From IMG/VR virus record IMGVR_UViG_3300045988_024527, positions 1-64,000 of that record: a stretch of DNA of 64,000 nt. One strand, written 5' to 3'. The notes beneath the pieces were generated by a model. The model worked only from the letters and a program-made list of their open reading frames with translations, was not told the DNA's origin and ran no database searches. This stretch comes from a virus. Lineage: Duplodnaviria; Heunggongvirae; Uroviricota; Caudoviricetes. The translations under genes and the position numbers were made by a program. Position 1 is the stretch's first letter; each line of letters begins with the position of its first letter. Positions 31,795 through 33,460 of the stretch are shown here, piece after piece.

Positions 31795-32057
31795 ATTTTT
31801 TATAAGGCTACTGCCATCCTTCCATACCAAGCCCTGCCGAACCGAACCATGCTTTGCCATACCGGACAATACCTGACTAGACATCACTTAAAAATCCTCT
31901 TAGAAGACTCTTAAGTGATGTAATCGAATTTTTATGTAGTTTCGATTAACTACCCATACCAAGCCTAACCTGACCGCACCAAACTTTACAACACCACACC
32001 ATACCTGACCATAACAAACCTCATTAAAAGACCCTGTTTAAAGACCTTTTAAAAAGG
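31795..32057 (-). repeat. modular intergenic repeat block A (CA-rich segments plus hairpins H1, H3, H2)
   Basis: Shares H1 (31882-31920), H3 (31922-31953) and H2 (32021-32057) with block B at 33221-33460, modules in different order. Confidence 0.6.
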
Positions 32058-32073
32058 AGCCTCCGAAGAGGCT
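32046..32073 (-). terminator. rho-independent terminator (- strand)
   Basis: Stem agcctc/gaggct with loop cgaa; on the - strand followed by ccttttt. Confidence 0.5.
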
Positions 32074-32084
32074 ACCTAGTCAAC

Positions 32085-32525
32085 TTAGAAAGGTTTTCTA
32101 CGTTGCTTGTTAATGTTAGCTTTCATAGCAGCTAAATGGTTTTGCTGTTCAATCAGTCGTGAACGTTCTTGATGACTAAGTGCCATAGTGTTCACATTCT
32201 CAATTGCTTGAGTGGCTTGTTTTAAAGCACGACCAATCTTACCAGACATTTTACGTTTTGCAATAGTTGCTTGATGTTTAGGTTCAACCACACGATAACC
32301 AACACCCATTGAAGCAACCAGATAAATCTTCTCTTCTTTAAGAAGTTTCTCAATAAACTTCTCAAGTCGGTTTAGACGTGTAAGTGCATAAGCCTTCATT
32401 TCATCTTCGTACTTAACAATGTCACCTTGATAAGTTGGCTTCACAATACCTAAGAAGGTGTCCATCTCAGAATGTGATACAGTGTCACCGTAACTAAACT
32501 TTGCTGCTAATGCTTTTGTATTCAT
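32085..32525 (-). CDS. hypothetical protein (146 aa), repeat-flanked cassette gene 2
   Basis: ORF track; basic C-terminus; no recognised motif. Confidence 0.5.
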   Translation of the reverse strand: MNTKALAAKFSYGDTVSHSEMDTFLGIVKPTYQGDIVKYEDEMKAYALTRLNRLEKFIEKLLKEEKIYLVASMGVGYRVVEPKHQATIAKRKMSGKIGRALKQATQAIENVNTMALSHQERSRLIEQQNHLAAMKANINKQRRKPF

Positions 32526-32527
32526 AA

Positions 32528-33130
32528 TTAAACATTACCTTCTGAAATAACTTCTACAGAAAAACGACCAAAGCGTGGACGCCAATCACCTACACCACAA
32601 AGGTTACCAGCATTTTCCAGAACCATCAGGAGTTCCTCTTTGGTGATTTGCTCTTCATCGAACATCAAACCGAACTCTACAGACCAGTCGCGGAAGATTG
32701 GACGGTAGCTCATAACTCGTGCTGTACCAATCTTAACAGACTTAGCATAGATAAAGTCTGGATTCTTAGCAAGTTCTTGTGGGTTTGCTGGACAGTTCTT
32801 GATAGTCATTGGGAAGACTACATCTGTCAGCATAATGGCTCGGTCAATCACCTTACCAAGTTTGTTGAGTTTCGCACCAGACTTGATGCAAGCCTCAATC
32901 ATCTCACCGTTCATAACAAAACCTAGCTGCTCATCGTAGTAACAAGAAGTTACCAGTTGGCTTTCTGCTAAGAGCGCATAGTCTTCGTCGGTCTTTTTAC
33001 GTTTACTGGACAGAGACTTGTGATATTTTGTCAGAGGGTTTAATGGGTCTGACAGTGTATCAGCGTGGCTCAGGAAAGGACGAGTACCAGTGATTTTGAT
33101 ATTTAACAGTTTCATAGCATTTAGCTCCAC
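32528..33130 (-). CDS. hypothetical protein (200 aa), repeat-flanked cassette gene 1
   Basis: ORF track; no recognised motif. Confidence 0.5.
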
Positions 33131-33220
33131 ACTTTAGTTGATTGTTAAGTTGTTTGTAAAGAACCCTCAACAGAAGACTCTTTAGAAACTTGGTAGATTT
33201 TTAATGTGGCTACTACCATC

Positions 33221-33460
33221 CACCCATACCAGACCTAACTACACCTCACCCCACCTGACCCATACCTCGCATTACCATACCAAACCAGACCCCACCTCAT
33301 TAAAAGACCCTCTTAAAGACCTTTTAAAAAGGTAAGTCTCATTTTAATGTAGCTGAGACTAACTACCCACACCAAACCATAGCATACATCGCATTACCGG
33401 ACAGAACCATACTTTACCAGACATCACTTAAAAACCCTCTTAGAAGACTCTTAAGTGATG
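33221..33460 (-). repeat. modular intergenic repeat block B (CA-rich segments plus hairpins H2, H3, H1)
   Basis: H2 33298-33332, H3 33335-33366, H1 33422-33460; a further hairpin ggtgagta/tactcacc at 33463-33504. Confidence 0.6.

Follow-up and report, generated by a model that had tools for sequence, protein, structure and literature searches.

Genes and repeat blocks at the locus

The DNA considered here, referred to as the window, comprises 64,000 nucleotides (nt) of the virus record IMGVR_UViG_3300045988_024527 (positions 1 to 64,000) and belongs to the genome of a Felix O1-like myovirus (Felixounavirus). Its segment 31787-33518, on the minus strand, is almost certainly a complete type II locus of VIPR (Viral Interference Programmable Repeat), belonging to the SUSP1 clade, in which a promoter is followed by two vrRNA genes, vipr, vap, a terminator, and two further vrRNA genes. 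Loci of this kind are already known from two preprints of April 2026 (10.64898/2026.04.26.720920, 10.64898/2026.04.26.720927), and the window supplies a textbook-quality instance and no new principle.

In the first-pass annotation of the window, two CA-rich intergenic blocks bracketing a two-gene cassette were described as built from the same modules, H1, H2, H3 and CA-rich tracts, arranged as CA-H1-H3-CA-H2 in one block and CA-H2-H3-CA-H1 in the other. Comparison of the window with itself confirmed the modules, their positions, and their order on the plus strand. The H1 copies at 31879-31920 and 33419-33460 share 42 nt with 97.6% identity, and the H2 copies at 32018-32057 and 33294-33332 share 40 nt with 95% identity; the H3 hairpins lie at 31921-31947 and 33335-33362, and a third common segment of 42 nt (83% identity) is found at the starts of the blocks, 31788-31829 and 33190-33231. 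The statement that nothing comparable occurs elsewhere in the window also held over the entire 64 kb, the sole other match being a 24-nt copy, at 48673-48696, of the terminator hairpin that follows vap (GAGCCTCCGAAGAGGCT). This copy, 95.8% identical and located on the opposite strand, is probably one more intrinsic terminator like it.

The functional strand is the minus strand, as had been proposed, and every gene in the neighbourhood 31314-34662 (those of the ligase and of the 195-, 146- and 127-amino-acid (aa) proteins) lies on it. Two regularities had been overlooked, a strict pentamer period and the mutual homology of H1 and H2 (~61% identity), owing to which each block can be described as two copies of one ~130-nt unit, i.e., four units in total. 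On the minus strand each unit opens with either H1 or H2 as its leader, continues with 11-14 GGYNN repeats, and closes with a 3' pseudoknot tail of the H3 type. The CA-rich tracts are in-phase 5-nt repeats, ACCNN on the plus strand and GGYNN on the transcribed minus strand. CC or AC occupies 9-10 of 12 in-phase positions per 60-nt stretch of these tracts, while no other site in the 64 kb exceeded 6 of 12, the signal being strand-specific; six other dinucleotides (GG, CA, TT, AA, GT, TG) never exceeded 6 of 12 in-phase positions anywhere in the 64 kb.

The features of the locus are as follows, in the order of transcription; the units upstream of vipr are designated B2 and B1, and those downstream of vap A2 and A1.

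33491-33518, minus strand: sigma-70-like promoter, TTGACA-16-TATACT, with 11 of 12 consensus matches, just past the ligase stop and upstream of the upstream vrRNA pair
33424-33460, minus strand: leader hairpin H1 of upstream vrRNA 1 (B2), kept 5' of many vrRNA tracts in relatives
33369-33423, minus strand: B2 guide tract, 11 GGYNN units, NN = CT AA AT TC CC AA GA AT AT TT GT
33331-33368, minus strand: B2 3' tail, type T2 pseudoknot (H3 of the first-pass annotation), ..[[[[..(((((((.]]]].......)))))))....
33297-33332, minus strand: leader H2 of upstream vrRNA 2 (B1), a sequence repeat
33226-33296, minus strand: B1 guide tract of 71 nt, with a 6-nt unit among its 14
33189-33225, minus strand: B1 3' tail, type T1 pseudoknot, TGGTAG/CTACCA stem and GTGG/CCAC
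32528-33115, minus strand: vipr, 195 aa, RAMP-like guide-binding protein, phrog_4652
32085-32525, minus strand: vap, 146 aa, accessory protein, directly downstream of vipr, phrog_5926
32051-32073, minus strand: intrinsic terminator after vap, AGCCTC-TTCG-GAGGCT and a T run, overlapping the start of leader H2
32021-32057, minus strand: leader H2 of downstream vrRNA 1 (A2), a sequence repeat
31956-32020, minus strand: A2 guide tract, 13 units, NN = TT AT CA AT GT GT AA TT GC CA TA TT AT
31920-31955, minus strand: A2 3' tail, type T2 pseudoknot (H3), AATCGAA/TTCGATT stem variant
31884-31920, minus strand: leader hairpin H1 of downstream vrRNA 2 (A1), a sequence repeat
31824-31883, minus strand: A1 guide tract, 12 units, NN = CT CA AT CC AT AA AT TC TC AG TT AT
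31787-31823, minus strand: A1 3' tail, type T1 pseudoknot, TGGCAG/CTGCCA stem and AAGG/CCTT
31742-31770, minus strand: sigma-70-like promoter of the 127-aa gene, TTGACA-17-TATTTT, annotated as a promoter in phage ASO1B, at the downstream edge of the locus

The locus is bordered by the genes of an ATP-dependent DNA ligase (33526-34662, minus strand) and of a 127-aa protein (31314-31697, minus strand), the latter being the next gene past it. The putative promoter at 33491-33518 is conserved across all relatives, including those lacking vipr. Promoters located inside the hairpin loops were also considered and dropped, their spacing being wrong. Folded as RNA, H1 forms a 19-bp hairpin (-20.2 kcal/mol, z = -6.5), and no structure is predicted for the guide tracts (z about 0). 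Tract and tail together amount to 93 nt in B2, 108 in B1, 101 in A2, and 97 in A1, lengths that would be consistent with the ~100-nt transcripts of SUSP1; since ~100 nt is thereby reached already, H1 and H2 would lie outside the mature RNA, and they may mark where the RNA is processed, or act as weak promoters or insulators.

The vipr and vap genes

The 195-aa protein matches PDB chain 36pp_D, "SUSP1 Vipr protein", over its full length with 192 of 195 residues identical (98.5%; phmmer, E = 8.5e-129). It contains H17, R138 and D177, the residues reported in the bioRxiv preprints as contacting G1/G2 of the GGY motif (10.64898/2026.04.26.720920, 10.64898/2026.04.26.720927). The 146-aa product is 99.3% identical to that of the gene following vipr in SUSP1, and the two-gene vipr-vap operon, in which vap1 enhances defence, is defined in the same source (10.64898/2026.04.26.720920, 10.64898/2026.04.26.720927). 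On the strength of these identities the 195-aa gene is regarded as vipr and the 146-aa gene as vap, the accessory role of the latter being taken from the preprint. Neither gene was assigned a function by Pfam, PHROGs or PADLOC, and vap had no match in Pfam or PADLOC.

Both genes are strongly conserved, at 93-99% identity in nucleotide and 97-100% in protein sequence, even in SUSP1, SUSP2 and Moogle, while in these three phages the protein of the neighbouring 127-aa gene shares only ~33% identity, and no nucleotide similarity of that gene can be detected. Such conservation beside a divergent neighbour would be expected if purifying selection is strong, if the locus is exchanged laterally, or if both apply.

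Repeats and tails in related phages

The segment 31700-33530 is matched by 231 phage records, and many E. coli and Salmonella phages of the genus share 90-92% identity with it. Twenty-nine loci (those of the window, wV8, ASO1B, heid, Felix O1, and IMG/VR contigs) were parsed by taking as vrRNAs the sequences between conserved leaders and tails, which yielded 104 vrRNAs with 9 to 19 repeats per tract. Tract length is an exact multiple of five in 101 of them, B1 of the window being one of the three that break the frame. In the 80 unique tracts (992 units) the first position of the unit is G in a fraction of 0.78, the second is G in 0.98, and the third is a pyrimidine in 1.00; the entropies across the five positions are 0.95, 0.16, 0.49, 1.92 and 1.89 bits, i.e., GGY is conserved and NN is hypervariable. 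Even the closest phages, ~92% identical over 1.8 kb, carry NN sets wholly different from those of the window.

The tails are of two types, both of which fit an H-type pseudoknot. T2 combines GTAG/CTAC with a 7-bp stem, either AGTCTCA/TGAGACT or AATCGRA/TYCGATT, and T1 combines GTGG/CCAC (or AAGG/CCTT) with TGGTAG/CTACCA (or TGGCAG/CTGCCA). The respective cells are paired in 100% (T2) and 98.6% (T1) of cases, and sliding the partners by one to three columns reduces pairing to 24-50%. Three compensatory pairs were counted for each type, for T2 among 15 tail variants and for T1 relative to the A1-type tail, though only about two independent variants per type underlie this covariation. The blocks match no family of Rfam 15, in which the search of the window returned 16 tRNAs only and nothing at 31700-33530.

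The composition of the unit bears on the suggestion that the minus-strand tracts act as G-quadruplexes or as sites for a GU-binding protein. In its full form this explanation holds that (GGNNN)n tracts form two-tetrad quadruplexes, or arrays bound by a host GU-binding or TRAP-like ring protein, which regulate the neighbouring genes. Such tracts could in principle give two-layer quadruplexes, and the 5-nt period resembles that of a TRAP site, with its triplets separated by 2-nt spacers. A quadruplex, however, predicts neither an invariant pyrimidine at position three nor a first position that is G in only 78% of units; the NN dinucleotides, hypervariable as they are, can be decoded to genes of a satellite (see below), which would not be so in a structural or regulatory tract; and the locus encodes Vipr, a dedicated GGY-binding protein, the guanines being bound by the protein one by one in the cryo-electron microscopy (cryo-EM) preprint. 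The explanation is thus considered extremely improbable. The G-rich words (GGT, GGC) do matter, as had been surmised, but as a protein-binding motif, their role in quadruplexes remaining without support.

VIPR and its proposed mode of action in the window

VIPR is a CRISPR-like system of RNA-guided DNA silencing in phages that consists of vipr, encoding an ancestral RAMP protein, and vap, and it has been proposed to be older than CRISPR (10.64898/2026.04.26.720920, 10.64898/2026.04.26.720927). Vipr is a minimal RAMP with an RRM core, a G-loop and a thumb, which binds GGY motifs, and in the cryo-EM preprint the guanines are held individually by the protein in the syn conformation (10.64898/2026.04.26.720920, 10.64898/2026.04.26.720927). 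The vrRNAs are intergenic, ~100 nt long, and contain 9-16 YNNGG repeats and an invariable 3' pseudoknot tail; in SUSP1 they are expressed and co-purify with Vipr, and the ribonucleoprotein represses transcription of the target (10.64898/2026.04.26.720920, 10.64898/2026.04.26.720927). Within the SUSP1 clade, for which the preprint counts 41 vrRNAs, 18 of the 20 guides with identifiable targets match a satellite phage in E. coli (10.64898/2026.04.26.720920, 10.64898/2026.04.26.720927).

The individual steps were established for the SUSP1 system, whose Vipr is the 98.5% identical one, and are carried over to the window. One Vipr protomer would bind each GGY, giving a helical filament along the vrRNA that sequesters the GGY bases and displays the NN dinucleotides; these would pair with double-stranded DNA of which every third base is skipped. 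The bound complex would then block transcription of the target, an effect that vap is expected to enhance, and the locus as a whole would act as a weapon of the phage against a parasitic satellite.

Guide targets in a satellite element of E. coli

When the region was compared by BLAST with 5,426 complete E. coli genomes, 141 chromosomes proved to contain vrRNA-like segments (70-94 nt), none of which is annotated. The segments sit in an integrated element of ~11 kb, whose genes include those of serine recombinases, a tape measure and a baseplate along with small open reading frames (ORFs), a content that fits the satellite of the preprint. The element contains no vipr. Its non-coding stretch of ~1-2 kb holds one vrRNA, with a TTGACG-17-TATAAT promoter and its own terminator and with neither an H1 nor an H2 leader. 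Copies of the satellite (13300-24750 in record L036, with equivalents in L037-L039 and L042-L045) are found at several chromosomal sites, ymdF/wrbA, yciI/tonB, yecN/DUF72, lafU/dinB and mdtG/lpxL, and are often hit by insertion sequence elements.

Eight satellites were scanned with the guides of the window under the "1-nt skip" code, in which the NN dinucleotides are matched to DNA with one base skipped between them. The following sites were obtained.

B2: 22 of 22 NN bases, L039 16016-16048, in a coding sequence
A1: 22 of 24 NN bases, L036 16802-16837 (first satellite coding sequence), also in L042 and L043, in a coding sequence
A2: 24 of 26 NN bases, L044 13671-13709, in a coding sequence
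A2: 23 of 26 NN bases, L038 14028-14066, in a coding sequence

At all of these B2, A1 and A2 sites the skipped base is the third (wobble) position of the codon, as in the preprint. The calculated number of chance matches for the three guides in the ~400 kb scanned is about 1e-8 to 1e-6, and guides with shuffled unit order reached at most 18-19 matching bases (one satellite locus). The same code applies to the clade: when 80 guides were scanned against four satellites, 38 matched at 80% or more with the 1-nt skip, and 0-1 when the skip was 0, 2 or 3 nt long or the order was reversed. As three of the four guides match protein-coding genes in the satellite, the locus is best read as an anti-satellite weapon. 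No self-targets were found in the window, where A1, A2 and B2 match at most 0.71 of their NN bases; the two short halves of B1 reach 12 of 14 there, which is the background for a 14-base pattern. Nor did the vrRNAs of the satellites match the window.

The vrRNA at ~12023-12102 of satellite record L038 was found to match a chromosomal REP element of E. coli, of the Z type (GCCTGATGCGCTACGCTTATCAGGCCTA). When the 1-nt skip is applied, all 20 bases of its ten 5' units agree with REP, the three 3' units doing so only partially; such matches lie at 8724-8762 in L045, 6607-6645 in L044, and 7859-7897 in L042. The 5' six or seven units are common to the vrRNAs of the satellite loci L037, L038 and L044.

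A vrRNA with its own promoter and terminator also has to be set against a purely DNA-level function of the blocks, as replication-origin iterons, a primase site array, or Rho-utilisation sites on a plus-strand antisense transcript. Short words are indeed repeated in the neighbourhood of replication genes (ligase, polymerase), the plus-strand tracts are C-rich, G-poor and ~60-75 nt long, i.e., rut-like, and some GGGTC and TGGTC words resemble T7 primase sites. Nevertheless, no plus-strand promoter was found, G does not consistently precede ACC as primase sites would require, and iterons would keep their sequence, whereas NN is hypervariable between near-identical phages. The presence of the same tracts in the chromosomal satellite, equipped for transcription, is consistent with an RNA gene, and a DNA-level element is given practically no credence. 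With the VIPR interpretation thus retained, the three possibilities originally raised, regulatory arrays, structured RNAs, or recombination scars, can be narrowed down: the blocks encode discrete structured small RNAs and are neither generic regulatory arrays nor merely scars, so that the earlier interpretation was partly supported.

Several observations weigh against the assignment of the window to VIPR. The published model gives no account of the H1 and H2 leaders, and the ends of the vrRNAs in the window are extrapolated from the ~100-nt transcripts of SUSP1. In B1 a six-nt unit, GGTAT-G-GGTCA, shifts the repeat frame by 1 nt in the middle of the tract (~33260), and no target of this guide above the shuffled background was found in the eight satellites and the window, with both halves and five junction models considered. 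In B2 the first GGY position is not G in six of 11 units, in spite of the perfect target match; in the preprint a GGY-to-AGY substitution abolishes reporter silencing, and "frequently observed internal degeneracy" is mentioned as well (10.64898/2026.04.26.720920, 10.64898/2026.04.26.720927). Finally, the target proteins of the satellite have no recognisable function in Pfam, PHROGs or PADLOC, and for that reason the benefit to the phage can only be inferred. As regards B1, its junction sequence, GGTATGGGT, equals a normal tract-to-tail boundary, as though a deletion had joined the beginning of one tail to an inner part of the tract that follows; this suggests that B1 is a chimera of two vrRNAs.

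Presence and absence of vipr-vap and orphan vrRNAs

Vipr with at least 96% identity is encoded in 118 records of Ounavirinae, comprising Felixounavirus, SUSP1, SUSP2 and Moogle, and ~113 of the 231 related records, about half, lack it. The two enclosed genes belong with the blocks, as the term cassette had implied, and in related phages the whole unit is either there or missing. The number of vrRNA units per spacer ranges from 0 to 3 among the relatives. In Felix O1 the spacer between the ligase and 127-aa genes is of 282 bp and contains a single vrRNA unit (4633-4914 in L004; 57632-57913 in NC_005282), whose 5' part corresponds to B2 of the window and the 3' part to A1; judging by this composition, it is what recombination between units, by gain or loss, would leave. 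Neither vipr nor vap was found by tblastn in ~95% of the Felix O1 genome or in the complete genome of BPS17W1.

This variability is the best argument for considering the blocks as ordinary promoter/terminator spacers turned into recombination modules that shuffle a two-gene cassette, in the manner of the PeSL elements discussed below. Both blocks contain promoter-like and terminator-like sites, vipr-vap is present in about half of the related records, the cassette-less junction falls within repeated units, and spacers differ in the number of units. None of the 5-nt period, the GGY/NN pattern, the covarying pseudoknots and the target matches is accounted for in this way, however, and recombination between units appears as a real side effect and not as the function; the explanation is regarded as very unlikely.

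For the vrRNAs themselves the VIPR reading has a further consequence in the phages lacking vipr. Felix O1 and BPS17W1 (63-482 in L050) keep one or two well-formed vrRNAs, with a leader, a GGYNN tract and a pseudoknot tail, between the ligase and 127-aa genes. With a threshold of at least 0.85, satellite matches were obtained for six of 12 guides of vipr-less phages and for 36 of 68 guides of vipr-positive ones, the controls giving zero. It is possible, though rather doubtful, that vipr-vap is a cassette subject to gain and loss, and that the orphan vrRNAs of vipr-less phages are live and either use in trans the Vipr of a co-infecting phage or titrate, as decoys, the Vipr of a rival. Supply of Vipr in trans would have a parallel in the satellite, which lacks vipr and whose own vrRNA must rely on it. 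Term searches in the main text of the preprint revealed neither orphan vrRNAs nor trans use, and a frame-shifted chimeric guide is not discussed there (10.64898/2026.04.26.720920, 10.64898/2026.04.26.720927).

Some of the records deserve a comment. The one of phage P54 (vB_EcoM_P54, PV390658.1; L046) is labelled Tequatrovirus, while its genome is of 88 kb and is 92% identical to this Felixounavirus locus. The assemblies of momo (L005) and warpig (L006) open inside the VIPR locus, in momo with truncation of vipr, probably as a result of assemblers stopping at the repeated vrRNA units. Genome termini or direct terminal repeats at the locus were considered and rejected: the "repeat_region" features of momo and warpig are 37-45-bp repeats, and the record starts, one of them inside vipr, look like assembly breaks and not like mapped ends. 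The record of wV8 labels the repeats "DR_4" only, and they are discussed neither in the Felix O1 genome paper nor in one paper on a Felix O1-like genome.

Elsewhere in the window, 16 tRNA genes are clustered on the plus strand at 698-4061, which is typical for Felix O1-like phages. An ORF of 177 aa at 35919-36452, resembling an HNH homing endonuclease, adjoins the DNA polymerase gene (36456-39185); its presence varies in relatives, and ASO1B and Felix O1 have an HNH gene annotated at the same position.

Significance

Only recently described, VIPR is carried by phages and recognises DNA by means of RNA guides and a non-contiguous code; the window offers a clean natural instance in which the GGY/NN repeats, the pseudoknot tail, the 1-nt skip, and the satellite targets are all reproduced from sequence alone. 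Felix O1 is used in Salmonella typing and in biocontrol. Beyond the scope of the preprints lie questions at the population level, namely the turnover of the guide repertoire, as near-identical phages carry unrelated guides, and the gain and loss of vipr-vap; to these are added the role of orphan vrRNAs in vipr-less phages and the tolerance of degenerate GGY units and frame shifts. The remaining interest of the locus is in the orphan vrRNAs, the chimeric guide B1, and the degenerate guide B2.

Comparison with known systems

The closest known system is that of SUSP1 (L017), which has the same H1 and H2 leaders, T1 and T2 tails, terminator and flanking promoters, and aligns with the window module by module. 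The GGYNN architecture of the guides and the class of the target, an E. coli satellite that carries a tape measure and a baseplate gene, are also the same. The hosts of the two loci differ, SUSP1 being a Suspvirus and the window coming from a Felixounavirus, with the flanking 127-aa gene conserved at ~33% identity only. The vrRNA genes are distributed as two upstream and two downstream in the window and as one upstream and three downstream in SUSP1; all four guides of the window differ from those of SUSP1, and the window has in addition a frame-shifted chimeric guide (B1) and one with a largely degenerate G1 (B2).

The binding sites of TRAP are tandem triplets (GAG or UAG) with 2-nt spacers, each triplet bound by one subunit of a protein oligomer. 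TRAP forms a closed ring of 11 subunits and has a different fold, its spacers carry no information, and it attenuates mRNA in cis. In VIPR, by contrast, the triplet is GGY, the NN spacers are informative, and DNA is recognised under the direction of a guide. Another parallel is provided by the PeSL cassettes of T4-type phages, reportedly described by Arbiol et al. in 2010, in which repeats composed of a promoter and a stem-loop are said to flank small gene cassettes. They are said to be regulatory motifs of ~50-60 bp with no guide function, whose copies recombine, leading to gene gain and loss, whereas recombination between VIPR units is a by-product of the homology of the vrRNA genes.

As for CRISPR-Cas, the locus contains no repeat-spacer array, its only genes are vipr and vap, and it has no PADLOC match. 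According to the preprints, VIPR resembles the Class 1 systems, with their Cas7/RAMP filaments, in that a protein of the RRM/RAMP fold oligomerises on the guide RNA with one protomer per repeat period, thumb-like elements periodically interrupt pairing, and the variable guide is capped by a conserved structured handle. Unlike CRISPR-Cas, it has neither a cas1/cas2 adaptation module nor a nuclease; its period is of 5 nt with two pairing bases, compared with 6 nt and five pairing bases in Class 1; the code has a 1-nt skip; and each guide is a gene in its own right, with a leader and a tail, encoded by a phage and aimed at a satellite.

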